A DNA stretch of 64,000 nt from Alphaproteobacteria bacterium (GTDB taxonomy: Bacteria > Pseudomonadota > Alphaproteobacteria > UBA2136 > JAPPOO01), in NCBI GenBank assembly GCA_028817875.1, contig JAPPOO010000076.1, positions 12,041 to 76,040 of the forward strand, in the 5' to 3' direction. The notes below the pieces were generated by a model. It was not told the DNA's origin and made no database searches. It saw only the letters and a program-made list of their open reading frames with translations. Positions 10,003 through 45,020 of this stretch are shown here, one piece after another. The position numbers were made by a program, and so were the translations under genes. Within the stretch, counting starts at the first letter, position 1; the number at the start of each line of letters is the position of its first letter.

Positions 10003-12594
10003 TTAACCAATAGCCGCTAAAATTCTTAAGTCGTATAGCAAATTCTGTGCTTCTCTGGGGCTAAGGGTGTCCAAATCAATTTCCAAAAGTTTATCTTTTA
10101 CCTGTTGGGCTTGCTCGTCAGTTTGCTCCAAATCAGAAGTAACAGAACTTTGCACAGGCGTTGTAAATAAAGGTAGGTCTTCCGCAGCGGCAACAGGCTT
10201 ACCTTGAGCAGATTTCTCCAACCCGCTCAAAATTTCTTCAGCACGCTTAAGGACAGGTTGGGGCAAACCTGCTAAACGACCAACATGAACTCCATAACTG
10301 CGTGGCGCAGCGCCTGCTTGCACAGCGTGGAGGAAGACAATATCTCCCTGCCACTCTTTAACGGTAACGTGGTGAATATGCACATTTTCTAGCTGGTCAG
10401 CCAACACGGTAAGCTCATGGTAGTGGGTAGCAAAAAGCCCACGGCAGCCAATAGTTGCCGCCAAATGCTCAACGCAAGCCCAAGCGATACTCATACCGTC
10501 ATATGTAGCAGTACCTCGGCCAATTTCATCAAGAACAACCAAACTACGGTTTGTGGAATTGTTAAGAATAGAAGCAGTCTCAACCATTTCCACCATAAAG
10601 GTAGATTGCCCACGGCTTAAGTCATCAGCAGCACCAATGCGGGTGAAAATGCGGTCAACAAGGCCAATATGCGCCTGAGTAGCAGGAACAAAGTATCCCA
10701 TTTGGGCAAGCAAGGTAATCAGCGCATTTTGCCGTAAAAAGGTGGATTTACCCGCCATATTCGGGCCAGTTAACAACCAAAGCTCACCGTCAGTTAGCGC
10801 ACAGTTATTAGCAACAAAATTCTCAACCGTATTTTCAACAACAGGGTGGCGTCCACCAACAATATCAAAGGCGTAGCTGTCATCCACAACGGGTTGAACA
10901 TAATCTCGTTGTTCAGCAAGCTCAGCACCAGCAGCTAAAACATCCAAAGTTGCCAAAGCTTCCGCCAGTTCCAGTAAATCTCCCGCTTTTTGCTGAACAG
11001 CAGCAATCAATCCTGCAAAAACTTGCTGTTCTCTAGCTAAAGAATTTGTTTCGGCAGCAGAAAACTCACGTTCCAAAGTCATAAGCTCTGCCGTAGAAAA
11101 CCGCTGTGCATTCGTGGTTGTTTGCCGATGAATATAATCTTCCGGCACTTTATCAACATTGCCTTTGCTAACTTCTAAGAAGTAGCCCCAAACTTTATTG
11201 TACTTAAGTTTAAGCGTAGGGATGCCCGTTCGAGCTTGTTCCGCTTGCTCAAGCTCTTTTAGCTTTTGTAAACCGTTAGACTGCAAATCACGGTAGCTAT
11301 CCAGCTCAGCATCATACCCAGTACGGATAAACCCACCGTCCCGTGCCAGCATGGGCAGGTCTTCTTCCTTCAAAGCCGCATCTAATAAGTGAGAAAGCTG
11401 GTCAAAGCCACTCAACTTTCCAGTTTGTTGTTGAATAAGAGGCACGGCAACATTCTCAACAGTTTTCTGCAAATCTGGCAATTGTTTAAGTGTTTGACGC
11501 AAACTATGAACATCCCGTGGGCTCCCGCGCTCTAAAACAATACGGCTGAGCGCACGCCCTACGTCCGTGCATTGTTTGAGAGTATCCCGTACATCTGCCC
11601 GAAGTTTGGCTGAATCCAAAAAAGTCGCAATACTTTCCAAACGCTGGTTAATGGCTTTAGTATCTGCCAAAGGCTGGCTAACCCAGTTTCTAAGGAGTCT
11701 AGCTCCTGCGGCCGTAGCTGTACGGTCAATAGCATGAAGAAGGCTGCCTTTCTTTTCTCCTTGAAGCGTTTCCGTTAACTCCAAATGTCTGCGCGTGGCC
11801 TCATCTAAAATGAGTTTTGTTTGCAGTACCTGAGTTTCAGGCATTTGCAAAGCAGGCAACTTACCAACTTGCGTGTGCTGTGCGTAGGCAACGGCTGCGC
11901 CTGCCGCGATACGCTGGACATTCTCACTAAATGACGGTCCCTCATCAAAAGCTTGCACCAAGGCAGAATCCGTTTGGCTGGAAGCAAAAAAGACGTCTTC
12001 CACTGTAACGGGCCAACCATAGAGGTCAGTTGCAAAGGTATCCGCAAGGCTACACGGAACAAGAATTTCCGCAGGGTTCAAAGCGGCCAACTCAGCCGCT
12101 AAAGTCTGCGGTGTCACAGAAGTTACGCCAAAGGAACCTGCCGCCATATCCAGCCAAGCTAAAGCGTATGTACCTTGATGCTCTGCAAGCGTTGCCAACC
12201 AGCGGGAAGCATCACTCGGCAACAAATTATCTTCCGTTAGCGTACCACCCGTATAAAGCCGAACAACATCCCGCGTAACCAAAGCCTTCGCCCCACCGCG
12301 CTTTTTAGCTTCTTCGGGGCTTTCCGTTTGCTCACACAATGCCACCTTAAAACCGCGGTTAATCAATTTAGCAATATACCCCTCTGCCGCGTGGTAAGGC
12401 ACACCACACATAGGAATCCCCTCAGCATCCTTGCTAGTTCTCCGTTGTGTAAGGGTAATTTGCAAAGTCTCTGCTGCCTGTAGGGCGTCATCCCCAAACA
12501 TTTCATAAAAATCCCCCATGCGGTAAAACAGCAAATAGCCGGGGTATTGGCCTTTTATGGTTTTGTATTGCTGCATCATAGGGGTGTCGTTCAT
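10003..12594 (-). CDS. mutS: DNA mismatch repair protein MutS (863 aa)
   Basis: Mismatch-binding N-terminus (…GDFYEMFGDDA…), Walker A GPNMAGKSTFLRQ, ABC signature and HTH dimerisation C-terminus. Confidence 0.95.
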   Translation of the reverse strand: MNDTPMMQQYKTIKGQYPGYLLFYRMGDFYEMFGDDALQAAETLQITLTQRRTSKDAEGIPMCGVPYHAAEGYIAKLINRGFKVALCEQTESPEEAKKRGGAKALVTRDVVRLYTGGTLTEDNLLPSDASRWLATLAEHQGTYALAWLDMAAGSFGVTSVTPQTLAAELAALNPAEILVPCSLADTFATDLYGWPVTVEDVFFASSQTDSALVQAFDEGPSFSENVQRIAAGAAVAYAQHTQVGKLPALQMPETQVLQTKLILDEATRRHLELTETLQGEKKGSLLHAIDRTATAAGARLLRNWVSQPLADTKAINQRLESIATFLDSAKLRADVRDTLKQCTDVGRALSRIVLERGSPRDVHSLRQTLKQLPDLQKTVENVAVPLIQQQTGKLSGFDQLSHLLDAALKEEDLPMLARDGGFIRTGYDAELDSYRDLQSNGLQKLKELEQAEQARTGIPTLKLKYNKVWGYFLEVSKGNVDKVPEDYIHRQTTTNAQRFSTAELMTLEREFSAAETNSLAREQQVFAGLIAAVQQKAGDLLELAEALATLDVLAAGAELAEQRDYVQPVVDDSYAFDIVGGRHPVVENTVENFVANNCALTDGELWLLTGPNMAGKSTFLRQNALITLLAQMGYFVPATQAHIGLVDRIFTRIGAADDLSRGQSTFMVEMVETASILNNSTNRSLVVLDEIGRGTATYDGMSIAWACVEHLAATIGCRGLFATHYHELTVLADQLENVHIHHVTVKEWQGDIVFLHAVQAGAAPRSYGVHVGRLAGLPQPVLKRAEEILSGLEKSAQGKPVAAAEDLPLFTTPVQSSVTSDLEQTDEQAQQVKDKLLEIDLDTLSPREAQNLLYDLRILAAIG

Positions 12595-23432: not shown

Positions 23433-24161
23433 ATGTACTTTTCTACTATACGCATTTGCGTTTGTATGATTGTGGTGAGCATAGTGTTCTCATCACAAGT
23501 TACAATCAGAAAAGCATATGCACAAAACAAGGACAAAGCCCAAAAGCTACAAGCACTGTATAAAATCTTGCCCCCAAAAGCGGCAAAAATAGCAAGACAG
23601 TTAATGACAAGCAGCCAAAACAAAAAGTCTGGCTTCATAAAGACCTACCACGAAATCCCTCCCATTAGACAGCATGCTGAATTTTGTCAAAGAAACCCGC
23701 AAGAGTGCCGACTTGCTAACGGTAATGGTAGGATGAAGCTTACAAAAATTCGTTGGCGGCAGTTGGTGAGCATCAATAAATGGGTGAACAAAAACATTAT
23801 CTATACACCCGAAAAAGGTGATGTTTGGGGTTACCCAAAAAGAGTCTACTACTATCACAGAGGAAAGTTCAGATTCAAGTATAAGGGTGACTGCGAGGAA
23901 TACGTAATCCTTAAACGTCACAAGCTTATTAAAAAAGGCTGGCCAGCAAGTAGTTTGCTTATAACAGTTGTCTGGGATGAAAACGGTGAAGGGCACGCTG
24001 TGCTAACAGCACGCACAGCCCAAGGCGATTATGTTTTAGACAATAAAAGCAGCAAAGTAAAAAAATGGAACAAAGTACCTTATAAGTTCCGTAAAATGCA
24101 GTCTCACAGAAACCCAAGACAGTGGGTGTCGTTACGCCCTAGGCTAAAGGTGGGTATGTAA
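23433..24161 (+). CDS. periplasmic transglutaminase-like cysteine peptidase (BTLCP, Peptidase_C93-like, 242 aa)
   Basis: Signal peptide plus candidate Cys/His/Asp triad in BTLCP-like context (…KGDCEEYVILK…, …GEGHAVL…, …YVLDNK…). Confidence 0.65.
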   Translation: MYFSTIRICVCMIVVSIVFSSQVTIRKAYAQNKDKAQKLQALYKILPPKAAKIARQLMTSSQNKKSGFIKTYHEIPPIRQHAEFCQRNPQECRLANGNGRMKLTKIRWRQLVSINKWVNKNIIYTPEKGDVWGYPKRVYYYHRGKFRFKYKGDCEEYVILKRHKLIKKGWPASSLLITVVWDENGEGHAVLTARTAQGDYVLDNKSSKVKKWNKVPYKFRKMQSHRNPRQWVSLRPRLKVGM

Positions 24162-24183
24162 CTCAGCAAACGAAATCAAAAAA

Positions 24184-24215
24184 CAGCCCCTTTGTGGGGC
24201 TGTTTTGCTGTTTTT
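24184..24215. terminator. bidirectional terminator (cagcccctttgtggggctg + T-tract; A-run on the other side)
   Basis: Lies between convergent genes 23433..24161 (+) and 24225..24968 (-). Confidence 0.6.
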
Positions 24216-24224
24216 AGGTAAAGC

Positions 24225-24968
24225 TTAGCTTTCCTCTTCGCGGATAACCAATGTGATGCTATCAATTTGAATGAGGCTGATAGTATCATGCGTAAAGGCA
24301 CCGTCTGTCTTCAAATTCCAACCAAGGTCCAAACGTGCAAGGGCTGTATCTGTTTTTAGTGTATCCTTAGCAGTAGAGTTTGTGGAAGCAATCGGCATTT
24401 GCTTACTTTTACCCACATTCTCAGTTTTAATTGTCGCGCCGGATTTGTTCAACAGCTCCGCTTGGTAGCTTACATTTGCAATTTCATCGCTATCCCAGTC
24501 AGTTGTTACTGTCCAGCCTTCTACAGTTGCCGTAACAGAAACATCTTTTGGCTGTTCACCGTTGGCACCAATTTCTTTTATTTCTACCTGAAAATGGACG
24601 TTGTCTTGGCTGAATTGCGCATTCATAATGCGAGTAAGGGTGTTAACCGTCGCACCAGCAATACCTTGCCCTGCTGTAAGGCCACCCGCCGTAAAACCAG
24701 TACCTAATGCCATAATACCACCGTGCGTAACAGAGTTAATAAGGGAGGTAATTTCGTCTAGTTCAGCCCCTTTGGAAACAGCCATGGCCGCTTCAAGCTT
24801 AAAAACAACGGTAATTTCTTTAGCAGGTGAGTTGTTAGGTGAAACCGTCACGCGGTCTCCTACACGGTCAGCAACAACATTAATGTCATCCCCCGTGCGG
24901 ATATCACTCACAAAACCGCGGATAAGAGATAAGTTTTGCGTAATGACATCGTTTTTTGAAATCTTCAT
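24225..24968 (-). CDS. hypothetical protein (247 aa), last gene of the cyclase operon
   Basis: ORF 89 bp downstream of the cyclase gene on the same strand, ending at a terminator; Gly/Thr-rich beta-type sequence, no signal peptide, no motif recognised. Confidence 0.45.
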   Translation of the reverse strand: MKISKNDVITQNLSLIRGFVSDIRTGDDINVVADRVGDRVTVSPNNSPAKEITVVFKLEAAMAVSKGAELDEITSLINSVTHGGIMALGTGFTAGGLTAGQGIAGATVNTLTRIMNAQFSQDNVHFQVEIKEIGANGEQPKDVSVTATVEGWTVTTDWDSDEIANVSYQAELLNKSGATIKTENVGKSKQMPIASTNSTAKDTLKTDTALARLDLGWNLKTDGAFTHDTISLIQIDSITLVIREEES

Positions 24969-25057
24969 GAAATATATTCTCCCATTGTTAATATTCTTGC
25001 GCGGGAGGGTAACACGTACCCGTTAAACGGGTACATATTTTTACAAGTATGGGGAAA

Positions 25058-27199
25058 TTATTTACTGCGTCGTTCCCACGCGCCGCGCCAGTTTTCAGGC
25101 GGTGGGTTTTTGCGGTAGTCAGCAATACGTTTACGGTAAAGTTCTGCAAGTAAATCATGGCTTTTTGTTTGATTAAAGGCCTCTTCAGCTTCATCCCACT
25201 GGCGGTTACGGTAGGCTTCCACCGCTTGGGTTATCAGTTCAACTTCCTGCCGCTCCTCAGGGGTTGGTTCGTCCATAGTGACCAACTCAAATACATCCAC
25301 TGGTTCGGTTTTACCTTTAACAATAACCTTGTCTAGCGGCAGAAAGGTTCCGTCTGGCACCAAGGCTTTAACATACTCTGACACAGCCACCTGCACACCA
25401 TATGGTTTACATAGCCCTTCCAAACGGGAGGACAAATTCACCGCATCGCCCATAACCGTATAATCAAACCGCTGTTCTGAGCCCATGTTCCCCACTGTTG
25501 CTAGCCCTGTGTGTAGGCCAATACCAATACGGATGGCAGGCATACTGCGCGCTGCCCACATAGTATTTAACTCTGCCAGACACTCCAACATAGCTAGAAC
25601 AGCAATACAGGCCTGACGCGGGTGATGAGGGACGTCTAAGGGCGCATTCCAGAACGCCATAATGGCATCGCCCATGTATTTATCGATTGTTCCGTTATGT
25701 TGAAGGATAATATCCGTCATTGGCGTAAGGTATTCATTAATAAAAGCCGTCAGCTCTTGCGGCGTAAAGCCTTCTGACAAAGTCGTAAAACTACGGATAT
25801 CACAAAATAAAATTGTCAATTCCCGTTGCTCTCCACCTAGCTGAAGTTGCTCGGGGTTTTTAGAAACAAGGCGCACCATATCAGGGGACAAATAATGGGA
25901 AAAAGCACCACGAACGGCCTTACGCTCTCGCTCCTCTTTGGCATATTTCAAAACAGTTTCCATCGCAAAAACAACCAGCAAAATACCAACGGGGATGAAG
26001 GCATCCGCTAAAAAGCCTTGTTGAAAAGCAAAAGCCCCAGCTGCTGGCATCGTTATAAAAATAATAGCCGCTAAAACAGACGTAAGGCTGGCACTTAAAA
26101 AGGCAACGGCAAGGAGCAAAATAGCCCCTAAAACAAGCGTAGCTCCATGTTCAGCCCACGGTAACCATTCAGGGCGTTGCAGAAAACGATTCTCCAAAAT
26201 ATTTTCAATAATCTGAACATGAATATCCACCCCAGGCACTTTGGCCTGCAAAGGCGTAGCCCGTAAATCCAACAGACCCTCTGCCGATGTACCCACAATC
26301 GCCATTTTGCCCTGCATTTTTTCAGGGGGAACTTTGCCCGTCAAAACATCAGCTGCTGAAACGTAGTTAAGTTTTGTATGCTTGCGGAAATGTACCCAAT
26401 AGCTTCCATCAGCCTCCGTAGGGACGGTGTATTCACCAAATGACAAACCAATCATGTTGCCAAAGTTATCTCTTACAGGTTTTAAAGTTGGGGTACGGCT
26501 ATGGGCACGAAGAAGCTTAATAGCCAACGGTGCAAAAACGGCATCTTGATAGCGAATAAGCAACGGCAAACGGCGGACAATATTATCCTGATCAGGGATA
26601 TATCCAAACCAGCCAAGGGCAGGGGCGTTATCTTCTAATTCTGGTAGGTTACGAACAAGAGCATTCACACGGGGGACACCCAAACTAAGTAAGTCAGCTC
26701 CCGTTACATCGCTAAACAGGTCAAAGTCATTCTCAGGCTGGAGGTGGGGAGCATTATCCAAAGCGTACCCAAGTACAACGGGTTTACCTGCAAGAGCCTC
26801 AGTAAACTGTTCATCGTGACGGGGCAAGTGCGCTAGTTTAGCCTTATCTTCATCAGGTAATGGCCAGTGTTCGGCAGCCAACTCGGGGGATGTTCGGTCA
26901 GGTTCAGCAAAAACCGCATCAAAAGCAAGAGCAGTAACGCCTTGGTTGAAAATTTGCTCCACCAACTCTGCCATAACGGTACGGGGCCAAGGCCATTGGC
27001 CAAGCGTGTGTAAGCTTTTTTCATCAATATTGATAACAGTCACAGGAACATCTTGCGGCACATCCCGCGGCCATAAGTTTTGGTAGGTATCAAACGTTTT
27101 GAGCTGAACAACCTGTAAAACGGTTGGCTGCATATGCCACACCACCACCAAGGCCAGTAATATGGCCCACGGTAGGAGTTTAGTAAAAAAGCGGAGCAT
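25058..27199 (-). CDS. CHASE2 sensor domain-containing class III adenylate/guanylate cyclase (713 aa)
   Basis: N-terminal TM plus periplasmic CHASE2-like region, 3 further TMs, then CYTH-unrelated class III cyclase catalytic motifs (…LTILFCDIRSFTTLSE…, …KYMGDAIMAFWNAP…, …IGIGLHTGLATVGNMGS…). Confidence 0.85.
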   Translation of the reverse strand: MLRFFTKLLPWAILLALVVVWHMQPTVLQVVQLKTFDTYQNLWPRDVPQDVPVTVINIDEKSLHTLGQWPWPRTVMAELVEQIFNQGVTALAFDAVFAEPDRTSPELAAEHWPLPDEDKAKLAHLPRHDEQFTEALAGKPVVLGYALDNAPHLQPENDFDLFSDVTGADLLSLGVPRVNALVRNLPELEDNAPALGWFGYIPDQDNIVRRLPLLIRYQDAVFAPLAIKLLRAHSRTPTLKPVRDNFGNMIGLSFGEYTVPTEADGSYWVHFRKHTKLNYVSAADVLTGKVPPEKMQGKMAIVGTSAEGLLDLRATPLQAKVPGVDIHVQIIENILENRFLQRPEWLPWAEHGATLVLGAILLLAVAFLSASLTSVLAAIIFITMPAAGAFAFQQGFLADAFIPVGILLVVFAMETVLKYAKEERERKAVRGAFSHYLSPDMVRLVSKNPEQLQLGGEQRELTILFCDIRSFTTLSEGFTPQELTAFINEYLTPMTDIILQHNGTIDKYMGDAIMAFWNAPLDVPHHPRQACIAVLAMLECLAELNTMWAARSMPAIRIGIGLHTGLATVGNMGSEQRFDYTVMGDAVNLSSRLEGLCKPYGVQVAVSEYVKALVPDGTFLPLDKVIVKGKTEPVDVFELVTMDEPTPEERQEVELITQAVEAYRNRQWDEAEEAFNQTKSHDLLAELYRKRIADYRKNPPPENWRGAWERRSK

Positions 27200-27232
27200 T
27201 CAGCCTCTTATTATTGTTTTTACGATAAAAAT

Positions 27233-30130
27233 TTATGGGGCAGAGTTGTTGTTTTGGTCTTCCCCAATGTAAATACCCGCACCAGAGGTGTTACCGACAT
27301 TGAAGTCAAATTGTCCACCAACCTCTTGCAAATCACTCCCAAAGTACGTGCCGGACATACTCCCTGCGTCATAATGCGTAACACCGTCATGCGTTACATC
27401 AAGCTCAGAGCCAAAATTAATAGCATTTCCAGGGCTAAAAGTCTCACTCATCTCGTAGTCGCCTAAGTCAGCATCAAAAGTAAGGCCAGAACCAAGGGTG
27501 CCATGTAGCCTAAATTCCCCTGTGTGGTGGCTAATATCTCCAGTTGTAGTATTAACTAAGGCGCCAAATGTACCACCCTCAAAATCAACATCACGACTGT
27601 CTCCAATTGCTGAATCAAGGGCTCCTTGTGTAGACTGCTCACCTGCGACATAAGGAATAAGGTGCGCCATGTCTCGTCCAGAAGGGGGCGCGCTAGGAAG
27701 GTCAAACCGTTCAAAAGAACCAGCCCAGCCACCCCAGTGGGAAAATTCACATTTGTCGCAGAGGTCGGGCAAGGCAACGTCGGAGACAATACCAGCATCA
27801 ACATTTTGGGCAGTGCTATCATTTTCAATATAAACAAAGCCAGAACCTGTGCCGTTAAAAGCAATTTTATTAACACCCATAGCGTAGCTACGGTTATCTA
27901 AAGCTGCAGCAGCATTATTGCCGTTATTATTAGACATATCTCCTCCGTAAACAAACATACTATTAGGTACTTTTTGGTTGTCATTGACTGAAACATCATC
28001 GGACTGGTAAGCAAGTTTCATACCTGTAATAAGGTTGCTTCCTGCATCTGCTTTAGTCTGAATACCTTCAGAAATAACATTTCCTGCATAGTGGCTTTGG
28101 TCTGTATCAGTACTCAATCTATAAAATGTTTTAGTGGTACCGCGTTCAACAAAGCCGGCACTAAAAGCTTTGGTTGGCAAGGGGGCATCAGTATCAGCAA
28201 TCGTACGGATACTTTCTTGATAAATTTGAGTATCTGGTAGGTTTACAACGTGGTCAAACTGACGAGTAGATTTATCAAGAATATGCCCTTCTACATCGCC
28301 AAACTCGTTACGGAATCCAACGACTATTTTATAGTCATGCCCGCCATTATCTAAATCAAGAACCCCACCAATAAAGGGACCGTTATTGGCTGCATCAGTT
28401 TGTTCATCAATATCATTAGCATCAGGAACATCTACATGCTCAATATGGGATAAATCGCTGTTAGTATCATCGCCAAGGTCGGTATTGAAAGAGAAGTCAT
28501 TACCGTTACCATCACCAAAGCTAGAGTCGTGTCCATCAAAATTGTGGTCACTTTCAAAATTAGTGTTTTGCCCGTCAAAATGGTTGTCATCGCCTCCAGG
28601 AGGAGGGAAGTGCTCATTACTACCATCTGCACCACCATAGTTTCCGCCGTCATAGGGCTGGTTGTAGCCATCATTGCCTGCATAATTATCACCACCGTGG
28701 TCTACGCCTGTAACAGTCGTTTGCCCCGTGCTAGGGTCAATAACAGCTCGCTCACCGTTAGGCCCACTAAGAACAACTTGCCCATCAGCCGTACGGGTCA
28801 TGGTAACAGGGGTTTCTTCACCATTAGGGCCAATCACAACGGCTTGGCCATCACCTGTTGGTTTAACGGTTACATTATCGCCATCACCACTTAAGTTAAT
28901 GCTTCCATCATCATTTTGTGTCGCTTGCATATGTTGTTCGCCAGCTTGGTCAGAGGTATTAGCATTACCATCTGGATTGCGTGGTTGGTTAGATTGTCGG
29001 CGTTCAGCACGTTGAGCACGACGTTCTTGACGGCGCTCTAAACGGTTGCCTTGTTGGTCATTACTTTTTGCATTAGGTTGACCACCTTCAGCATCTCCGT
29101 CTGTTCCTTCAGGAGGCTGGCCATCGTTTCCGTCTCCGTCGGGTGGGCCTTGTTCACCATCACCTTCTTGATGGTCTTGTCCATCCTGTCCATTATCGTC
29201 CTGTGGTCCAGCACGGCGGCGTTGGCGGTTATTGCCACCCTCTTCGCCTTCTTGCTTATCTCCGTCACGGCCTTCTTCGCCGTTTGCTTCATTCCCATCT
29301 CCACCATCGTCTTGAGGGTCGTTACCGCTTTCATCACCCCCATCATCCGTTTGTTCATCATTCTGACCACTGTCGTCATTCCCCTCATCGTCAGCACCTT
29401 GGTCATTATCGCCTTCGTCAGAGGCATCCTCATCAGAACCTTCTCCGCTATCGCCTTCGGTGCCGCTTTCATCACCTGCGCCTTCTTCAGCCTCACCATT
29501 AAGAGCAGACTGCAATTGCTGGCGTACTTGCGGTGTCATAGGGGCAGCAGGGGCAGGGGGTTGGTCAGGGTCAGTCACTTGGCTAAAGTCATTCACGTTA
29601 TCAAGTGGCACGGGCGGAGCATCTGACCCATTGGCGGAAACATCCAAACAACACTGTGTAAGCCCAACCAGTGTTTGGCCGTTATCCGCCACTTGAATAA
29701 TACCGCCAGAACCGCGCACACCAATAGTAGCAAACGGCGTGGTAACTTGAACATTTTTAGGGTTATTTTTCGCAATTTTACCTGTAACAAACTGAATAAC
29801 ACCCTTTTGTGCATTAACGCTGGATTGCCCAACCCGCTGCTCGGCATCATAAACAAAAGTTTCAATCTTAACTTTGGAATCCCGCCCAATAGTAAACACA
29901 CTGTCATCGTTTAGAATAATCTGAACCCGTGCGCGTTTACCTGTAACAATGGTATCGGACTCAAAAATTTTCTCCTGAGGCTCCAAAGGCTTTTGAGTAC
30001 CATCTGCCAACAAGCGGGAAACTTGGCCTTTAGCAACTGCTACCAAACCCACAGGTTCTTCAGCCTGTGCCGGTAAAGCCAAAACACAAGCAACTAAAAT
30101 CAAACCTAACAGCACGTAGCGGATGCCCAT
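27233..30130 (-). CDS. putative surface lipoprotein (965 aa): N-terminal FecR-like domain, about 180-aa poly-acidic/low-complexity linker, C-terminal TbpB/fHbp-like beta-barrel domain
   Basis: Signal peptide with possible lipobox LVAC; FecR-like segment (…VAVAKGQVSRLL…DSVFTIGRDSKVKIE…ATIGVRGSGGI); D/E/G/N-rich region with an ERRQERRAQRAERRQ stretch; C-terminus …GTYFGSDLQEVGGQFDFNVGNTSGAGIYIGE, resembling the F-G-x-x-A-x-E-V/L-G-G-x-F terminal strand motif of TbpB/fHbp barrels. Confidence 0.55.
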   Translation of the reverse strand: MGIRYVLLGLILVACVLALPAQAEEPVGLVAVAKGQVSRLLADGTQKPLEPQEKIFESDTIVTGKRARVQIILNDDSVFTIGRDSKVKIETFVYDAEQRVGQSSVNAQKGVIQFVTGKIAKNNPKNVQVTTPFATIGVRGSGGIIQVADNGQTLVGLTQCCLDVSANGSDAPPVPLDNVNDFSQVTDPDQPPAPAAPMTPQVRQQLQSALNGEAEEGAGDESGTEGDSGEGSDEDASDEGDNDQGADDEGNDDSGQNDEQTDDGGDESGNDPQDDGGDGNEANGEEGRDGDKQEGEEGGNNRQRRRAGPQDDNGQDGQDHQEGDGEQGPPDGDGNDGQPPEGTDGDAEGGQPNAKSNDQQGNRLERRQERRAQRAERRQSNQPRNPDGNANTSDQAGEQHMQATQNDDGSINLSGDGDNVTVKPTGDGQAVVIGPNGEETPVTMTRTADGQVVLSGPNGERAVIDPSTGQTTVTGVDHGGDNYAGNDGYNQPYDGGNYGGADGSNEHFPPPGGDDNHFDGQNTNFESDHNFDGHDSSFGDGNGNDFSFNTDLGDDTNSDLSHIEHVDVPDANDIDEQTDAANNGPFIGGVLDLDNGGHDYKIVVGFRNEFGDVEGHILDKSTRQFDHVVNLPDTQIYQESIRTIADTDAPLPTKAFSAGFVERGTTKTFYRLSTDTDQSHYAGNVISEGIQTKADAGSNLITGMKLAYQSDDVSVNDNQKVPNSMFVYGGDMSNNNGNNAAAALDNRSYAMGVNKIAFNGTGSGFVYIENDSTAQNVDAGIVSDVALPDLCDKCEFSHWGGWAGSFERFDLPSAPPSGRDMAHLIPYVAGEQSTQGALDSAIGDSRDVDFEGGTFGALVNTTTGDISHHTGEFRLHGTLGSGLTFDADLGDYEMSETFSPGNAINFGSELDVTHDGVTHYDAGSMSGTYFGSDLQEVGGQFDFNVGNTSGAGIYIGEDQNNNSAP

Positions 30131-30191
30131 GGCGGTACTCTTTCTTTTATTTATCCCTAATCTGCTGATTTCTTATAGATTCAGCCATGAA

Positions 30192-31541
30192 TTAAAACCT
30201 TTTTGTTAATGACATGGACCACCGCTCATTCTCATAAGCGTAGTTTTGAATGTTAGATGTCGTCTCTTTATAGGTGTATCCACCACTGATAGTAATAGTC
30301 GGCGTTAGCGGTTTGCTAAGGTTAAGAGACAAGCTGAGTGAATTATCATCACGTGTCTTTGTCGGGTTAACGGAAGCATCAGGTGCGCGGTACTTTGTAT
30401 GCGTCAACGTCAACCCACCAACAGCACTCAAATTATACCAAGGTAATTGATGCAAAGTTTTAAAGTCCAGCGCATCGGAAACATAACTGTAATACTGGGC
30501 AGTCGTTTGTTCGTGATGGTTCGTGTAACCAAGGGTAAATGTGGTTTTAGGGGAATAAGCAAAAGTCGCATTAGTCTTAAATTCCCAAGCTTCACCATTA
30601 CGGAGCGTATAAAGGCTGCTACTGGCACTATTGTGGTGGCGTTTTAAATCATGAGAACCTGTAAATTGCAACTGCAGTTTAGGGTGCATAGCGTACGTCC
30701 ATTGTGCTTGCTTACGCCATGTTTGTTGGTAATCTGCTCGCGCAAGGTTTGTATCCGTGTACTGGACGGAGACGCCGAGACGAGAGCGCCATGTGGGAAT
30801 CACCCACACAGAGCCTGTTTTAATAGATTTAAGCGTGACATCCAAATTGGAAAGAAGGGATTGTTTTGTACGGTAGTAAAGGCCTTCTGTTTGCCATGTG
30901 TGGCCGCGTGGGTCACTAAAACGGTAGCTATGCCGTAACGCCAAAGCTTCAAAAACATGCTGATCCTCAGTTTTACTGCCACTTGCGGTAATAGGAAAGC
31001 TTACACCGCCGGAATCTTGATTTCCTGATGCAGGGGAGGCATTTCCGTTACTATCCTCATTCCAACCAAAGGTAAGGCTGCCACTGAAAAAATGGCGCTG
31101 TTTACGCGTACCAATTTCAGCCAGCATTTTTTGGATGTTATCCTGCACGGCTTCTGGCGGGTTAATAGCCAAAACTTCTCGCAAAAGCTTTTCTGAATCA
31201 GTGAAATTATTGATTTTCATGTAGATGAGAGCCATGTCCAGCTTAACACGGTGGAGGTCTGGCCGAGAAATCAACATCCGCTCGTAAGAGGCTAAAGCCT
31301 CATCATACTTCCCTAATTGGCCAGCAAGTTGCGCGTAAGCAAAGTTAGCATCAAGGCTTTCAGGGTTTTCTTTGATTTTTTGAAACAAAACTTCCAGCTT
31401 GGCCAGTTGTTGCTCTCTATTATCAGTAGGTTTTTTAGGTGCCTCAACAGGTACTGGTACAGTTTTACTAACAGCCGCTTCCTGTGCCTGAGCAGCACAA
31501 GCCAAACTTACAGATAGGCAAAGGAAGGCGACTTGTTTCAA
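30192..31541 (-). CDS. outer-membrane protein with periplasmic TPR domain and C-terminal beta-barrel; Slam (DUF560)-like architecture, 449 aa
   Basis: Signal peptide (…CAAQAQ), TPR-like helices (…YAQLAGQLGKYDEALASYERMLISRPD…), C-terminal alternating-hydrophobic beta strands ending in a terminal aromatic (…SLTKRF). Confidence 0.5.
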   Translation of the reverse strand: MKQVAFLCLSVSLACAAQAQEAAVSKTVPVPVEAPKKPTDNREQQLAKLEVLFQKIKENPESLDANFAYAQLAGQLGKYDEALASYERMLISRPDLHRVKLDMALIYMKINNFTDSEKLLREVLAINPPEAVQDNIQKMLAEIGTRKQRHFFSGSLTFGWNEDSNGNASPASGNQDSGGVSFPITASGSKTEDQHVFEALALRHSYRFSDPRGHTWQTEGLYYRTKQSLLSNLDVTLKSIKTGSVWVIPTWRSRLGVSVQYTDTNLARADYQQTWRKQAQWTYAMHPKLQLQFTGSHDLKRHHNSASSSLYTLRNGEAWEFKTNATFAYSPKTTFTLGYTNHHEQTTAQYYSYVSDALDFKTLHQLPWYNLSAVGGLTLTHTKYRAPDASVNPTKTRDDNSLSLSLNLSKPLTPTITISGGYTYKETTSNIQNYAYENERWSMSLTKRF

Positions 31542-31550
31542 TAAGCCCTC

Positions 31551-32156
31551 CTAAGCATTTTGTTGTGCCACTTGGCGACGTAAACTTTGAATCTCAGTCA
31601 CAAGGTCGTACCGTTCTACCAAAGCACCCAGCATAGTCATAAGGCCCTTCACACGGTCAACTTCACTCAACGGGAAAGGCGTATACGTTGTATTACCATT
31701 CTCATCAGTACCACCAATATGGTTAATCAACTGAACAACACCGATGACCTGCCCTTGCACGTTTTTAAGAGGGAACGCCAGCATGGAAAGAGATTTGTAG
31801 CCATGCTTTTGGTCAAAGGATTCATTGAAATTGTAAGAAACCTCCGCGGGGATATTATACAAATCATCAATTTCAACAATTTCTCCAGTAGAAGCCACAT
31901 ATCCACCAATACTGCTTAAATCAATCGGTACATGAAAACGTTCAGAGGGCACATCCACCACATCATTTTGGGTTGCAACGGCTTCTAGATGGTTAAATGT
32001 GCGGTCTGCCACAGGGCGTGCCACAAAAACCGTACCAGCTTCAGCAGCTGTAGCACGGCGCAAACGTGCTAAAATCAGGTTCAGAACTTTATCAAGGTCA
32101 AAGTCTTGCTGTTCTTCCAGCAGTTCAACCAAGTCTTCCAATAAACTCATACGCAA
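31551..32156 (-). CDS. stand-alone GAF domain protein (201 aa)
   Basis: GAF-like fold pattern (…AEAGTVFVA…, …GGYVASTGEIVEIDD…, …SMLAFPLKNVQGQVIGVVQLIN…); 9 bp upstream of the TPR/OM gene. Confidence 0.65.
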   Translation of the reverse strand: MRMSLLEDLVELLEEQQDFDLDKVLNLILARLRRATAAEAGTVFVARPVADRTFNHLEAVATQNDVVDVPSERFHVPIDLSSIGGYVASTGEIVEIDDLYNIPAEVSYNFNESFDQKHGYKSLSMLAFPLKNVQGQVIGVVQLINHIGGTDENGNTTYTPFPLSEVDRVKGLMTMLGALVERYDLVTEIQSLRRQVAQQNA

Positions 32157-32302: not shown

Positions 32303-33385
32303 TTAGCCGTAAAAGTTTACCAGCCAAGCAACCAACATAACCTGCGGGACGCTAATAAGCGGCAAAAACAAAGCAATTTTCCAGCTTTTTGTGGTGTCTT
32401 TCAGTACCATAATTTCTGTGTAGTCCGTTGCCACGCCTGCCATCAAAAAAGCAAAACCATTCCCTGGGGCTTGGGCACGGGTGAGGATATCCGCCGCAAT
32501 GGGGGTAGAACCTTCCGAACAAACCTCCAGCACCGTTGCAAACACAACAGTCACTAGTAAGCCGATAAACGTAGGGCCAAACAAGCCTTCAAATTGGGTA
32601 GGGTCAAGCAAAGCACGTAAAGCAGCGGCCAATAAAATACCAAACAGCAACCATCGCAATACAATGCGGGAGTCCTTCACACCATTTACAAAAATATCTT
32701 TAAAAAACGCAAAATCAAAACGGGTGGCCTGAATACCTGTACGCGCATCTTTCCAAAAGTGAAAATCTTCCGGCATGTCCACAGTATTATGGTTTTCAGG
32801 TAGCCAACCGCGCGCTACAAAGCGGTCAAAAACCCAGCCCGTAATCAATGCAATAACAATAGACAGCCCGATAAATACAAAGGTCCATTGCCATCCGATA
32901 AGAGTTACTAAAATAAGCGTTAAAGAAAAAGAGTTCCAAGGGCTTGCCAGTAAAAAAGCTACAATCTGGCCGATACTGGCACCGCGCTGGTACAATTTAA
33001 CGGCCACCATCAGTAGCCCATGGCTACATAAATCAAACAAAACACCCGCACCAACGGCCCGTAACAGGCCATTAAAAGTACCGCCTTTACCTAAAACAGA
33101 CATAATAAAAACCTGCGGTATTTTAGAAAGGAGCCCCACAAAAACAGCCCCTATAACAACCCCCCACCAAACAGTATGAACCATATAATGAACAGTGTGC
33201 GCCATAGTTGCTAGCCAAGAGTGGCCAGCAGTAAAACCAGCAAAAAAAGTACCTAAAACATACAAAGCAGCAATACCAACTAAAGACCCCCAAAAAATGA
33301 AGTCAAACTTCCGCTTATTACCGCTGCAACAAGCTGGCTGAGGGGAAGGGGAATGGCAATGCGTCATATAAGTGTTATGCCTCAA
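32303..33385 (-). CDS. multi-TM permease, DUF318-like (360 aa), with Cys/His-rich N-terminus
   Basis: 8-10 TM segments; N-terminal HCHSPSPQPACCSG suggests metal or redox binding; family assignment tentative. Confidence 0.4.
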   Translation of the reverse strand: MRHNTYMTHCHSPSPQPACCSGNKRKFDFIFWGSLVGIAALYVLGTFFAGFTAGHSWLATMAHTVHYMVHTVWWGVVIGAVFVGLLSKIPQVFIMSVLGKGGTFNGLLRAVGAGVLFDLCSHGLLMVAVKLYQRGASIGQIVAFLLASPWNSFSLTLILVTLIGWQWTFVFIGLSIVIALITGWVFDRFVARGWLPENHNTVDMPEDFHFWKDARTGIQATRFDFAFFKDIFVNGVKDSRIVLRWLLFGILLAAALRALLDPTQFEGLFGPTFIGLLVTVVFATVLEVCSEGSTPIAADILTRAQAPGNGFAFLMAGVATDYTEIMVLKDTTKSWKIALFLPLISVPQVMLVAWLVNFYG

Positions 33386-40367: not shown

Positions 40368-41699
40368 TTATTTCCAAAGAGACAAGGCTCTCACCACATC
40401 TAAAGCACGGGTAAGTTGGAAGTCATTCTCACGCTTCTTGGCATCGCCAGCGGTACGCTTCTTCTCTTCATCTTCCTCCTCATCACCATCCTTCTTGCTG
40501 CCCTTTTTACCTTTCTTTTTCTCATCGTCAGAAAGCGTAATGTGGCCACGTAAAGATGCTTCGCTTGGGTAGCCTTCAACTTCAACCTCTTCAACCTTCT
40601 TAATCGGCTTCACTTCAATATCAGGCTCAATCCCTTTGGCTTGAATACTGCGTCCTGAAGGCGTGTAGTACAGCGCAGTTGTTAAGCGCATACCAGCACC
40701 ACCAGGCAAGTGCATAATGGTTTGTACAGAACCCTTACCGAAGGACTTCGTGCCCAAAACAATCGCTCGTTTGTGGTCTTGCAAAGCACCGGCTACAATC
40801 TCAGAAGCACTGGCAGAACCACCGTTCACCAACACAACAATGGGCTTACCATCCAAGATATCACCATGGCGCGCCGTGTAACGGCTATTTTGGTTTGTTA
40901 GGCGTCCACGGGTGGAAACAATCTCACCGTTATTCAAAAAGGCATCAGCCACAGCCACAGCTTGTGTTAACAAACCACCAGGGTTATTCCGTAAGTCCAA
41001 TACAATCCCTGTCAACGGTGCATCGTTTTCGTCTTCCATACGCGCCAAATGTTCCTTCATGCTACGGTCAGTATTATCATTGAAGGACGTAATACGTAGG
41101 TAGCCAATACCATCTTTCTCCAAACGAGACTTCACAGGCTTAATCTTAATAATTGCGCGCGTAATGGTAATATCTAAAGTCTTTTGCTCACTTTCACGGA
41201 ACACTTTAATGTAGATATCTGTCCCTGGTTTACCGCGCATACGGTCAACCGAGTCAGAAAGCGTCATACCCTGCACGTCTTCATCGTCAATTTTAATAAT
41301 TAAGTCACCAGCCTCAATACCAGCCTCGTAAGCAGGGGTGTCTTCAATGGGGGCAACAACGCGCACCAAGCCTTTTTCCATAGTAACTTCAATACCCAAG
41401 CCGCCAAACTCGCCCTTGGTCTGCTCTCTCAAACCTTGGAAATCTTCTTCATTTAAATAGGCAGAATGCGGGTCAAGCGCTGTGAGCATACCGTTAATGG
41501 CATTCTCAATAACTACGGTTTCTGTCACTTCTTCCACATAAGCAACGCGGATTTTTTCCAAAACATCGGCAAAAACATTCAGTTTTTCGTAAACTTCTTT
41601 ATCTACGCCAGCTTTGGCAGCAAAGGAAGTAACGGGAAGAACAAGAGCGGCAGAGAGTAAAAGCGCGCGCACAGGCGTAAAAATCATTGGAGGCACCAT
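40368..41699 (-). CDS. ctpA: C-terminal processing peptidase, S41 family (about 443 aa)
   Basis: Signal peptide (start moved to the internal ATG MVPPMIF…), PDZ domain, S41 catalytic region (…GVVLDLRNNPGG…, …LVNGGSASASEI…); acidic and Lys-rich C-terminal tail. Confidence 0.85.
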   Translation of the reverse strand: MVPPMIFTPVRALLLSAALVLPVTSFAAKAGVDKEVYEKLNVFADVLEKIRVAYVEEVTETVVIENAINGMLTALDPHSAYLNEEDFQGLREQTKGEFGGLGIEVTMEKGLVRVVAPIEDTPAYEAGIEAGDLIIKIDDEDVQGMTLSDSVDRMRGKPGTDIYIKVFRESEQKTLDITITRAIIKIKPVKSRLEKDGIGYLRITSFNDNTDRSMKEHLARMEDENDAPLTGIVLDLRNNPGGLLTQAVAVADAFLNNGEIVSTRGRLTNQNSRYTARHGDILDGKPIVVLVNGGSASASEIVAGALQDHKRAIVLGTKSFGKGSVQTIMHLPGGAGMRLTTALYYTPSGRSIQAKGIEPDIEVKPIKKVEEVEVEGYPSEASLRGHITLSDDEKKKGKKGSKKDGDEEEDEEKKRTAGDAKKRENDFQLTRALDVVRALSLWK

Positions 41700-41913
41700 T
41701 GTTATTATAGATTCAAGTCTAATTTTACGTAATTTATACAACCCATTCTGGCGGAAGTCAAAAGGCTTGTCTAGTAAGAAGGCGCCACGGCACACCTCAC
41801 AAAAAAGTTGCACATAAATCATATGTAGTATACATGAAGGCTACTGAATTCAGGGATATTAAAAACCCTGAGTTGAAACAACTTCAAAATCATTTATCCG
41901 TTAGGAGCTAACT

Positions 41914-44814: not shown

Positions 44815-44906
44815 CCGCCCGCCGGTATGGACGTCCCCAGCTGTGAACCCCGTCAGGCCCGGAAGGGAGCAGCGGCAACGGTATGGAGCGGGTCGTGCCG
44901 GCTCAT
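44815..44906 (+). ncRNA. ffs: signal recognition particle RNA (small 4.5S-type SRP RNA, ffs)
   Basis: Conserved domain IV motif …GUGAACCCCGUCAGGCCCGGAAGGGAGCAGC… with closing gccgg/ccggc terminal helix; -35/-10-like elements (ttgctg…tatgct) just upstream. Confidence 0.65.
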
Positions 44907-45020
44907 CGTTTCATAAAACCCACACACCCCTGTTGAAGCATATTAAGGCGGTTGTATTTGCTGACAGGTAAGGTATTATCGGGTTGCGAAACAATAAAAG
45001 TTCCGAAATAATACTCGACA

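Follow-up and report, generated by a model that had tools for sequence, protein, structure and literature searches.

What does an outer-membrane protein of the Slam type do in an operon that also encodes a CHASE2 cyclase and a stand-alone GAF protein? The locus lies in a window of 64,000 nt (the whole stretch of DNA that was analyzed) from a marine alphaproteobacterial MAG.

Gene layout and the conserved unit

An ORF check of the window gave five minus-strand ORFs, separated in transcription order by 9, 61, 33, and 89 bp, and a terminator beyond the last of them:

31551-32156, minus strand: GAF protein (201 aa from TTG)
30192-31541, minus strand: Slam-family outer-membrane protein, OMP (449 aa)
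27233-30130, minus strand: FecR/barrel protein (965 aa)
25058-27199, minus strand: predicted CHASE2 cyclase (713 aa)
24225-24968, minus strand: orphan ORF (247 aa)
24180-24206, both strands: bidirectional hairpin terminator (11-bp stem, 6 GC pairs, T-runs on both strands)

For the GAF gene, ATG 32150 (199 aa) is a more probable start than the TTG. A scan within the operon found no terminator-like sites between the five genes, and the hairpin at 24180-24206 closes both the operon and a convergent BTLCP gene.

The preliminary description of this DNA had proposed a five-gene operon. The five ORFs, with their coordinates, strand and gaps, are as claimed, but the fifth member is not conserved. The 247-aa ORF has no Pfam or NCBIfam match, and its homologue in tblastn searches was found solely on a contig of the same genome (L005), with none in the subset of related loci searched. 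It has a plausible RBS, with a hairpin upstream that carries no U-tract, and it may be co-transcribed with the operon. Because it has no homologue in the related loci, comparison of these loci places it outside the conserved module and indicates that the conserved unit is one of four genes, not five.

The core of OMP, FecR/barrel protein and CHASE2 cyclase recurs in 10 of 11 related loci, so that the gene order is indeed kept in relatives. The three genes are adjacent and in the same order in L001-L004, L013, L010, Shinella p1 and Paracoccus pAMI5, and in L011 as a split gene. The exception is L012, where the GAF, OMP and cyclase genes are present and the FecR/barrel gene is absent from the locus; the link between OMP and cyclase may thus not be strictly cargo-dependent, or the cargo gene may lie elsewhere in the L012 genome.

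The four conserved proteins

The domain assignments of the preliminary description were all borne out. The 449-aa protein, which had been taken for a DUF560/Slam OMP, scores 36.7 bits against SlipAM/DUF560 (cutoff 22), 41.4 bits against TPR_19, and 31.8 bits against TPR_Slam, slightly below the cutoff of 35.2. Its AlphaFold model (mean pLDDT 86) has six helices and 14 long strands:

31101-31427, minus strand: TPR region, about residues 39-147, after the signal peptide
30198-31094, minus strand: 14-strand beta-barrel in the AlphaFold model, about residues 150-448

The top TM-scores for this model are with the 14-strand OmpG, no solved Slam structure having been found in the PDB for comparison, and homologues in the same cluster carry the NCBI names “surface lipoprotein assembly modifier” or “DUF560.” The HMM score above cutoff, the modeled barrel and these names support assignment of the protein to the T11SS (type 11 secretion)/Slam/DUF560 family.

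The neighboring 965-aa protein is identical to NCBI MDD9912809.1, and homologues with the same architecture exist:

30062-30130, minus strand: signal peptide, residues 1-23, read from sequence (MGIRYVLLGLILVACVLALPAQA then EE)
29531-30061, minus strand: FecR-like N-terminal domain with QCCLD motif and Pro-rich tail, residues 24-200 (Pfam FecR, 41.7 bits)
28391-29530, minus strand: acidic low-complexity linker rich in D, E, G, N, and Q, residues 201-580
27764-28390, minus strand: middle beta-rich region, residues 581-789, aligning solely with the closest homologue (P0002)
27236-27760, minus strand: C-terminal module, residues 791-965 (CxxCxFxHWGxW motif, short pedestal, predicted 8-strand barrel)
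27257-27592, minus strand: strands of the TbpB/fHbp/NHBA-type barrel in the AlphaFold model, residues 847-958

The three strings that had been quoted from this protein (LVAC, TYFGSDLQEVGGQFDF, and GAGIYIGE) are each found in its translation. LVAC had been read as a possible lipobox and the protein as a surface lipoprotein; the letters are there, but the lipobox is not conserved, a lipobox-like Cys being present in only two of 18 homologous signal peptides compared. Most of these homologues, like the window protein itself, have an Ala-X-Ala-type site a few residues ahead of the conserved FecR start. The lipoprotein reading is not supported on these two grounds, and the protein looks like a non-lipidated substrate of signal peptidase I.

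The FecR-like domain, correctly recognized from the outset, is followed by the conserved QCCLD motif and is the most conserved part of the protein (41-65% identity among L001-L004 and L013, vs. 22-34% for the C-terminus). The N-terminus also gives a weak match to NF033682, the LapA retention module (2e-5; 24.8 bits against a cutoff of 50), and its FecR region a weak one to DUF7354. The linker of about 380 aa has no family matches, differs in length and sequence between homologues, carries a net charge of -46 over residues 200-420 and of -29 over residues 420-580, and is probably disordered. The barrel profile finds weak internal matches in the middle regions of the homologues, and this region could represent either a handle or a second lobe that has degenerated.

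At the C-terminus, a profile of 23 homologues matches NHBA (3e-10) and TbpB (4e-9), as well as LbpB, fHbp and HphA, and PF01298 matches 21 of the 23 family members. The window protein’s own C-terminus scores 11.8 bits against PF01298, below the cutoff of 26, and as a single-sequence query it had no match in the PDB. Its AlphaFold model has eight strands with a pLDDT of about 95 over the barrel; among the Foldseek PDB matches listed, 50 of 50 are T11SS cargo (NHBA, TbpB, fHbp, LbpB, HphA), with NHBA the best structural match. C41, C44, W49, G50 and W52 of the CxxCxFxHWGxW motif are invariant in alignment A1, and the A1 barrel profile matches every FecR protein of the triad loci (E-values 2e-63 to 4e-15). 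Together, the 23-sequence profile and the model support the earlier proposal of a TbpB/fHbp-type 8-strand barrel, the hallmark of T11SS cargo.

The 713-aa protein had been called a CHASE2 class III cyclase, which holds and can be narrowed with respect to nucleotide:

26108-27157, minus strand: CHASE2 periplasmic domain, residues 15-364 (Pfam CHASE2, 196.9 bits)
25304-25825, minus strand: cyclase catalytic domain, residues 459-632 (Pfam Guanylate_cyc, 71.1 bits)

Its nearest solved relatives are the adenylate cyclases CyaB (2e-32) and CyaC (3e-32), with which the catalytic residues align: the metal-binding Asp residues (FCDIRSF, GDAIMAF), the substrate Lys (IDKYMGD), the Thr (DYTVMG), and the Asn and Arg (VNLSSRLE). 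By these residues it is a class IIIb CHASE2 adenylate cyclase, the Lys/Thr pair being predictive of ATP as substrate.

The GAF protein (Pfam GAF, 45.4 bits) had been proposed as a cNMP-binding receptor, and its best PDB matches are indeed cNMP-binding GAF domains (Anabaena CyaB2, 5e-14; PDE2A GAF-B, 2e-11; also PDE5, PDE6 and PDE10), which makes it a putative cAMP/cGMP receptor. It is kept at the first position of the operon in seven loci (L001-L005, L012 and L013) with 46-67% identity. A cNMP receptor role for the first-gene slot is supported by L010, in which a non-homologous, CAP-type protein (PF00027, cNMP_binding) takes the place of the GAF protein.

Relation to known systems

The pairing of OMP and cargo is that of the known T11SS systems. 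Neisseria Slam1 and Slam2 (cargo TbpB, LbpB, fHbp, and HpuA) and the pairs HrpB-HrpC and HsmA-HphA, whose cargo is soluble, likewise have a DUF560/SlipAM OMP with an N-terminal TPR and a predicted 14-strand barrel, and the gene adjoining the OMP encodes a C-terminal 8-strand TbpB-type barrel; HphA and HrpC, like the window cargo, carry a signal-peptidase-I signal peptide and no lipobox. The differences lie in the N-terminal “effector,” which here is a FecR domain followed by an acidic linker of roughly 380 aa (a FecR domain is not among the ten T11SS cargo architectures in PMC12282271), in the host, here a free-living marine alphaproteobacterium, and in the neighbors: T11SS pairs adjoin TonB-dependent receptors and metal/heme uptake genes, whereas this one adjoins a CHASE2 adenylate cyclase and a cNMP receptor. 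The part of the published T11SS co-occurrence tables considered here lists neither PF05226 nor PF00211, and lists FecR together with ECF sigma-factor domains.

On the signaling side, the closest studied analogue is NsrA-CyaK of S. meliloti (also CyaD1/CyaD2), in which the gene of a FecR envelope protein that also has TPR repeats and an outer-membrane barrel immediately precedes that of a CHASE2 adenylate cyclase. NsrA and CyaK are both required to convert an external protein signal (uL2) to cAMP (PMC7529298, PMC13001267). NsrA is one chain of 1197 aa (FecR followed by TPR and, at residues 600-1200, a large integral barrel), whereas the window splits the FecR protein, with its soluble-type TbpB barrel, from the TPR-barrel OMP. 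The profile of the Slam-like OMP has no sequence similarity to the TPR/barrel part of NsrA, nor does the A1 barrel profile match NsrA, and because of the former the analogy with NsrA extends only to the types of domain. The downstream receptor also differs: the transcription factor Clr in S. meliloti, a stand-alone GAF protein here.

A cluster in Campylobacterota, which we liken to ours by its published description, has similar kinds of genes around a CHASE2 adenylate cyclase, namely a FecR-domain “outer membrane protein,” a TPR protein and, in place of the GAF protein, a cAMP phosphodiesterase; its authors regard it as a single pathway that has spread horizontally (PMC9239204). That paper describes the gene cluster only, and does not call the TPR protein Slam/DUF560 or the FecR protein a T11SS cargo. 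We found no published link between this type of cAMP gene cluster and T11SS in the literature. Thus, the claim that Slam had not been linked before to cyclic-nucleotide signaling is largely right for the T11SS literature, but the gene cluster had already been described in Campylobacterota.

Two further systems share part of the logic. The Burkholderia “BiofilmReg” operon and a P. aeruginosa pair combine a LysM-FecR protein with a CHASE2 histidine kinase; here too the gene of a secreted FecR protein adjoins that of a CHASE2 sensor, and joint periplasmic action is presumed, but the anchor is a peptidoglycan-binding LysM, there is no outer-membrane component, and the output is two-component rather than a cyclase (PMC5192318). 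FecA-FecR-FecI resembles the proposed module in that a FecR-type domain in the periplasm passes an outer-membrane event on to an inner-membrane/cytoplasmic output. In the classical system FecR sits in the inner membrane as an anti-sigma factor, has its N-domain in the cytoplasm and partners an ECF sigma factor, whereas the window FecR follows a cleavable signal peptide and its operon has neither a sigma factor nor a TonB-dependent transducer.

A possible envelope-spanning input to cAMP synthesis

We consider it probable that the operon is a conserved four-gene cAMP-signaling unit, in which the envelope proteins form an envelope-spanning input module for the inner-membrane CHASE2 adenylate cyclase. 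In this model the 965-aa cargo would reach the periplasm by Sec export and, as its sequence suggests, be cleaved by signal peptidase I; the Slam-type OMP, judging by its family membership and the conserved adjacency, would recognize the C-terminal TbpB-like barrel and pass it to the cell surface; and the FecR domain would touch the periplasmic CHASE2 domain, as the recurrent FecR-CHASE2 pairing and NsrA-CyaK suggest. cAMP synthesis would then change with what happens at the outer membrane or beyond it, and the GAF protein would read, buffer or feed back on the cAMP. The module suggests an unreported route by which outside signals reach a cAMP-making membrane enzyme.

The topology is the least certain step. 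In the reading that we prefer, tentatively and short of calling it probable, the FecR domain remains periplasmic and the protein is threaded or tethered through the OMP by its linker; that FecR is the best-conserved part of the protein speaks for it. The conceptual precedent is LapA-LapE-LapG-LapD, in which the rest of the chain crosses the outer membrane by way of a channel, leaving an N-terminal globular retention domain in the periplasm. Export of LapA is by a T1SS with a TolC-like pore, under c-di-GMP control, and we know of no precedent for a retained N-terminal domain in T11SS. The BTLCP gene convergent to the operon encodes a LapG-family protease; none of the related loci carries this gene, nor is the PAAP site conserved.

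Alternatively, the whole FecR/barrel protein might be T11SS cargo of the classical kind, translocated in full and then displayed or released, its FecR domain working outside the cell (e.g., in binding or adhesion) and the cyclase being informed indirectly. A cargo barrel and a dedicated OMP are both encoded, and NHBA, the best structural match, likewise has a long disordered N-terminal part and a C-terminal barrel. All characterized T11SS cargo, lipidated and soluble, crosses the outer membrane completely (PMC8406197; PMC12282271). We nevertheless think this unlikely: with a lipoprotein anchor unsupported, the exported protein would have to be released or otherwise tethered, and the high conservation of the N-terminal domain, the most conserved part, is more easily explained by an internal partner that is itself conserved than by an external ligand that varies. 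Elsewhere, FecR domains pair with periplasmic CHASE2 (PMC5192318), and that of NsrA precedes the outer-membrane barrel and so should be periplasmic (PMC7529298). These last two points make surface display of the FecR domain questionable in the original picture of a FecR sensor displayed by Slam and signaling to the cyclase.

Nor do we see much likelihood in the opposite extreme, in which nothing is translocated, the TbpB-like barrel docks from the periplasm on the TPR region or barrel of the OMP, and a stable bridge of OMP, FecR protein and CHASE2 uses the OMP loops or lumen as surface sensor, in effect a functionally split NsrA. The length of the linker suffices to bridge the periplasm, and L012 retains OMP and cyclase without the cargo gene. 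To our knowledge, however, in all Slam systems studied the exported element is the 8-strand barrel; moreover, the conservation of the barrel and the invariant CxxC and HWGxW motifs point to a domain that folds and has a function, more than to a simple tag for docking. In NsrA, which has FecR, TPR, and outer-membrane barrel in one chain, exposure is thought to be limited to the barrel loops (PMC7529298), but no homology is detectable between its barrel and the OMP.

That the adjacency is merely regulatory or coincidental, with a Slam pair secreting an adhesin-like or nutrient-binding protein beside an independent CHASE2 cyclase-GAF unit, is very improbable: operons can mix unrelated functions, and the cargo gene is absent from one locus, but the triad keeps its order over very divergent loci (OMP identity 25-51%) on chromosomes and plasmids, and the FecR-CHASE2 pairing recurs independently of Slam (PMC5192318; PMC9239204; NsrA-CyaK).

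Layout of the operon and its surroundings

The five minus-strand ORFs under study lie exactly where the preliminary description had placed them, with gaps of 9, 61, 33 and 89 bp, and every domain it had assigned was confirmed by Pfam. We refer below to the 449-aa TPR and DUF560 protein as the OMP, to the 965-aa FecR/barrel protein as the cargo and to the 713-aa CHASE2 protein as the cyclase; the remaining ORFs encode a 201-aa GAF protein and a 247-aa protein. The operon and its neighbors are:

10003-12594: mutS
23433-24161, plus strand: BTLCP/Peptidase_C93 (LapG-family) periplasmic cysteine protease gene, 171.8 bits
24180-24206: bidirectional hairpin, end of the operon
24225-32156, minus strand: the operon
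31551-32156, minus strand: GAF ORF as listed, from TTG 32156; an ATG follows two codons downstream, at 32150
32303-33385, minus strand: ArsP/SO_0444-like permease gene, preceding the GAF gene

No terminator-like site was found between the genes of the operon; a hairpin between the cyclase gene and the 247-aa ORF has no U-tract, and the terminator at the operon end is shared with the convergent protease gene. The 247-aa ORF had been counted as a fifth member of the operon, which we reject: it has no Pfam or other family match and no homologue in the related loci. For the GAF gene, ATG 32150 is more likely the true start, as it is preceded by a Shine-Dalgarno-like AAAGGAA sequence and agrees with the 199-aa gene call on a Logan contig. 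The cargo has an identical NCBI record, MDD9912809.1 ([quoted passage not shown]), and contigs assembled from run SRR10996916 carry the same operon. Since MutS is located in this region in several relatives as well, we regard the operon as a chromosomal locus with conserved synteny. The syntenic relatives (L001-L004, L012 and L013) all have a CitMHS/TrkA_C transporter gene ahead of the GAF gene, where the window has the permease.

The outer-membrane protein and its adjacent cargo

The OMP matches the SlipAM/DUF560 HMM (PF04575) with 36.7 bits against a curated cutoff of 22, over profile positions 100-288 of 288. Its orthologue in L001 scores 35.1 bits, precomputed PF04575 and PF24575 matches are present on most of 19 homologues, and a cluster of homologues bears the NCBI name “surface lipoprotein assembly modifier” or “DUF560 domain-containing protein.” The N-terminal TPR region is recognized by TPR_19 (41.4 bits, cutoff 25), while the Slam-specific TPR_Slam profile reaches 31.8 bits, just below its cutoff of 35.2. 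In the AlphaFold model (mean pLDDT 86), six TPR-type helices (residues 39-147) are followed by 14 long strands (residues 150-448), mostly with pLDDT >90; this predicted architecture is the one expected of a Slam. A PDB fold search with the model gave the best TM-scores to the 14-strand OmpG; the other matches were generic outer-membrane barrels and the TPR-barrel polysaccharide exporters BcsC, PelBC and PgaA, and no solved Slam structure was among them. An exopolysaccharide porin of the BcsC/PgaA type was considered and set aside, given the SlipAM match, the 14 strands rather than 16 and the neighboring cargo-barrel gene. The assignment of the 449-aa protein to the DUF560/Slam family thus holds, on the PF04575 score, the modelled strands and the cluster name. 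The cargo gene begins 61 bp downstream of the OMP gene, an adjacency kept in 10 of the 11 related loci.

Taken as a single sequence, the cargo C-terminus alone had no match in Pfam or the PDB, and its 384 aa found nothing in a word-indexed database of 5.8 billion proteins; the whole 965-aa protein gave only low-complexity noise against the PDB and neither a PF01298 nor an FHBP_C match in a whole-protein scan. Against PF01298 (TbpB_B_D) itself the C-terminus scored 11.8 bits (E = 0.36), short of the gathering cutoff of 26, and the barrel is therefore recognized only at the level of profiles and structure models. An exhaustive HMMER search yielded only 25 representatives related to the cargo among 1.84 billion, and a profile built from 23 homologous C-termini retrieved just two short fragments from the word-indexed database. 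The aligned C-termini have their invariant residues in a CxxCxFxHWGxW motif, which is followed by a ...nGAFFGpxAxEvGGnFxF...GaGvf.G tail. The profile matches solved cargo of the type 11 secretion system (T11SS): NHBA/GNA2132 (3e-10), TbpB (4e-9), LbpB, fHbp and the haemophore HphA; PF01298 is touched by 21 of its 23 members. The AlphaFold model made from the same alignment is an 8-strand barrel (pLDDT about 95) and, in a Foldseek search of the PDB, NHBA, TbpB, fHbp, LbpB or HphA accounted for 50 of 50 among the matches listed, each with a probability of 1.00. Profile, model and fold search all point to the TbpB/fHbp-type barrel that had been proposed from the last strands of the protein.

Weak, partial matches to the barrel profile were also seen in the middle regions of several FecR/barrel homologues:

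L002 protein: residues 397-427 and 532-575
L003 protein: residues 429-469 and 736-772
L004 protein: residues 525-560 and 622-663

They hint that a degenerate second TbpB-like lobe, or a handle, may precede the terminal barrel.

In the cargo N-terminus, as read by eye from the sequence, an n-region with positive charge is followed by a hydrophobic core and an AQA/EE site, a Sec signal-peptide layout that recurs in homologues. The LVAC motif, from which a surface lipoprotein had been proposed, is real but lies within the hydrophobic core, and ...LALPAQA/EE comes after it. Among 18 homologous signal peptides compared, the +1 Cys is not conserved: a lipobox-like [LVI][ASTVI][GAS]C motif occurs in 2 and 10 have no Cys at all, and most have an Ala-X-Ala-type site within a few residues upstream of the point where the conserved FecR region begins. 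For these reasons the cargo is best read as a signal-peptidase-I substrate and not as a Slam-dependent surface lipoprotein (SLP sensu Hooda), since the conserved SPII lipobox with an invariant +1 Cys is absent. HphA and HrpC are soluble T11SS cargo of the same signal-peptidase-I type (PMC8406197). The FecR domain (Pfam, 41.7 bits) would directly follow the predicted cleavable signal peptide; this N-terminal region is the best-conserved part of the protein, with 41-65% identity in the syntenic loci vs 22-34% for the barrel. The middle is a variable acidic linker with a net charge of about -75 over residues 200-580.

The cyclase, its candidate receptor and the conservation of the module

The cyclase carries CHASE2 (196.9 bits) and Guanylate_cyc (71.1 bits) domains, and its cyclase domain aligned best with the adenylate cyclases CyaB of P. 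aeruginosa (3R5G) and CyaC of Spirulina (1WC0/1WC1) and with photoactivated adenylate cyclases. The alignment shows the metal Asp pair, the substrate Lys (IDKYMGD), the class IIIb Thr (DYTVMG) and both the Asn and the Arg of VNLSSRLE; the Lys/Thr pair points to ATP as the probable substrate and, because no catalytic residue is missing, the protein is most likely an active adenylate cyclase. The GAF protein (Pfam GAF, 45.4 bits) has as its top PDB sequence matches exclusively cNMP-binding GAF domains (CyaB2, PDE2A GAF-B, PDE5, PDE6 and PDE10, at 5e-14 to 6e-7). In L010 its slot is taken by a stand-alone CAP-type cNMP_binding protein (PF00027; 6484-6981), and because this protein is not homologous to GAF, the replacement supports the GAF-slot protein as a putative cyclic-nucleotide receptor. 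On the Paracoccus plasmid pAMI5, a gene combining cyclic-nucleotide-binding and patatin phospholipase domains (L008 4551-6377) lies divergent to the OMP-cargo-cyclase triad. Non-homologous candidate cNMP receptors have thus been recruited to the same module (L010, pAMI5), and the small GAF or CAP-domain proteins are likely to be the first readers of the cAMP produced.

The conservation of gene order in relatives, which the preliminary description had proposed to check, was borne out. The order GAF, OMP, FecR/barrel protein, CHASE2 cyclase is kept in four metagenomic or MAG loci with MutS-region synteny to the window (L001-L004; OMP identity 31-51%) and again in L013. The triad is retained in L010, where the OMP is 27% identical and the middle gene encodes a FecR/TbpB_B_D protein, and in L011, where two ORFs make up the FecR protein; it is also carried by the Shinella plasmid p1 and by Paracoccus aminophilus pAMI5. 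The barrel profile matches the C-terminus of all FecR proteins of the related loci (2e-63 to 4e-15). A single-sequence scan of genome contigs with the OMP returned one locus; the context comes mostly from homologue-encoding contigs and a plasmid collection. The module is rare but recurrent, not a one-off: most occurrences are in marine metagenomic or MAG loci, and two alphaproteobacterial plasmids also carry it.

Two of the related loci have peculiarities of their own. In L012 (5417-9578, a Logan ERR15087792 contig), the GAF, OMP and CHASE2 cyclase genes are consecutive, the stop codon of the OMP gene directly adjoins the start of the cyclase gene, and no cargo homologue was found by tblastn within the 13-kb locus; the cargo gene has either been lost or is elsewhere in that genome. 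On Shinella p1, NHLP-type bacteriocin export genes (L007 4670-6670 and 13043-14492) lie to either side of the triad; their products are a C39 peptidase ABC transporter and an NHLP secretion protein.

Our data establish the identity of the parts, the presence of a cargo-type barrel next to a Slam-type OMP, and the conserved linkage of both to a CHASE2 adenylate cyclase and a putative cNMP receptor. Of the original interpretation, the parts, the OMP, the barrel and the order stand; the lipoprotein and the fifth member do not. What the locus holds, as predicted from sequence and models, is a T11SS pair in which a FecR-domain protein serves as the cargo and is wired to an adenylate cyclase of the CHASE2 type.

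Known systems, topology and further features of the window

With the T11SS, the window OMP shares the PF04575 match, the TPR region, the modelled 14-strand barrel and the adjacent TbpB-barrel gene. The T11SS papers describe lipidated and soluble cargo, about 10 cargo architectures and co-occurrence with TonB, haem and metal genes (with DUF1194 in marine cluster 3); FecR, CHASE2 and cyclases are nowhere mentioned in their main texts and, in the part of the co-occurrence supplements available to us, PF05226 and PF00211 are absent and FecR appears with ECF sigma-factor domains. FecR-CHASE2 pairing is already known from Burkholderia (PMC5192318), and it is the link of this module to the T11SS that appears to be unreported.

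The closest functional parallel comes from S. meliloti, in which sensing of an external protein signal requires both NsrA, an outer-membrane protein, and the CHASE2 cyclase CyaK (PMC7529298, PMC13001267). The gene immediately upstream of cyaK (L009 1772-5365, pSymB, CP140955.1), which is evidently nsrA, is annotated only as “FecR domain-containing protein.” Its 1197-aa product has a FecR domain (57.8 bits), TPRs at residues 417-531 and a C-terminal barrel region; we found no mention of the FecR and TPR content in the accounts of NsrA that we consulted. Domain types that the window distributes over two proteins are thus combined in the single chain of NsrA. We considered whether it is a fusion homologous to the Slam-like OMP, but this is not supported: neither the barrel profile nor the OMP profile matches NsrA, and the two FecR domains align only weakly (1e-4). 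Because the OMP profile finds nothing there, we take the likeness as an analogy of domain types, and the window system, which lacks FecR, TPR and barrel in one polypeptide, as an analogue and not a member of the NsrA type.

The anti-sigma layout of FecIRA signalling is absent: the cargo FecR domain follows a signal peptide, and the operon has neither a sigma factor nor a TonB-dependent-receptor gene. A weak match of the cargo N-terminus to the LapA retention module (NF033682; 24.8 bits, below the cutoff of 50) is suggestive but not evidence, and the cargo ends in a TbpB-type barrel, not in the RTX/T1SS signal of LapA-type proteins. The LapG-like protease, which this resemblance made an attractive candidate, was rejected as a component of the module: none of the 11 related loci has the gene, and the only di-alanine site, PAAP at residue 194 of the cargo, is present in the window protein alone.

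How the parts would work together can be stated more tentatively. The OMP would export, or at least engage, the cargo barrel, the FecR domain would contact CHASE2 in the periplasm, and the module would relay an extracellular or outer-membrane event into cAMP. Full export, in which the whole cargo crosses the outer membrane, is a live alternative for the topology, as known T11SS cargo does cross completely; the FecR-CHASE2 logic and the NsrA precedent argue instead for a periplasmic FecR domain. Also live is docking without translocation, in which the cargo barrel would merely dock at the OMP. We favor, with less than even confidence, a threaded topology with FecR inside, the linker across and the barrel outside. 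In this tethered arrangement, the Slam-type OMP would keep the cargo threaded through the outer membrane and not release it: the TbpB-like C-terminal module would sit on the cell surface as a ligand-binding head, the acidic disordered linker would pass through or alongside the 14-strand barrel, and the N-terminal FecR domain would stay periplasmic, clamped on the CHASE2 domain.

The roles so far known for Slam concern nutrient-capture proteins, adhesins and immune-evasion factors, which it places on the surface of host-associated bacteria or releases from them. CHASE2, for its part, is widespread as a sensor domain, and we know of no identified input for it; its recurring FecR partner has been noticed and, to our knowledge, the connection of that partner to the outside has gone unexplained. 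Here a Slam-type OMP and a cargo-barrel protein seem to be hard-wired into a second-messenger operon, in free-living marine bacteria and on rhizobial or Paracoccus plasmids, which would bring signal transduction within the scope of the T11SS and make FecR plus TbpB barrel a new cargo architecture. Together with NsrA-CyaK, the locus gives a testable model in which CHASE2 cyclases sense events beyond the outer membrane. If the threaded model is true, this would be cell-surface signalling built from type 11 secretion, leading directly from extracellular binding to cAMP, and CHASE2, an orphan sensor domain, would have its first mechanistic input route.

RNA matches were seen elsewhere in the window:

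40368-41822, minus strand: S41 C-terminal processing peptidase ORF
40682-40994, plus strand: full-length Rfam match to Rickettsia sRNA47 (Rp_sR47), 71.6 bits vs a gathering score of 60
44818-44908, plus strand: bacterial small SRP RNA, 51.1 bits
45021-49775: 1584-aa ORF

The Rp_sR47 match lies antisense within the peptidase ORF and may reflect conserved protein-coding sequence, not a real sRNA; the SRP RNA is located just upstream of the 1584-aa ORF.
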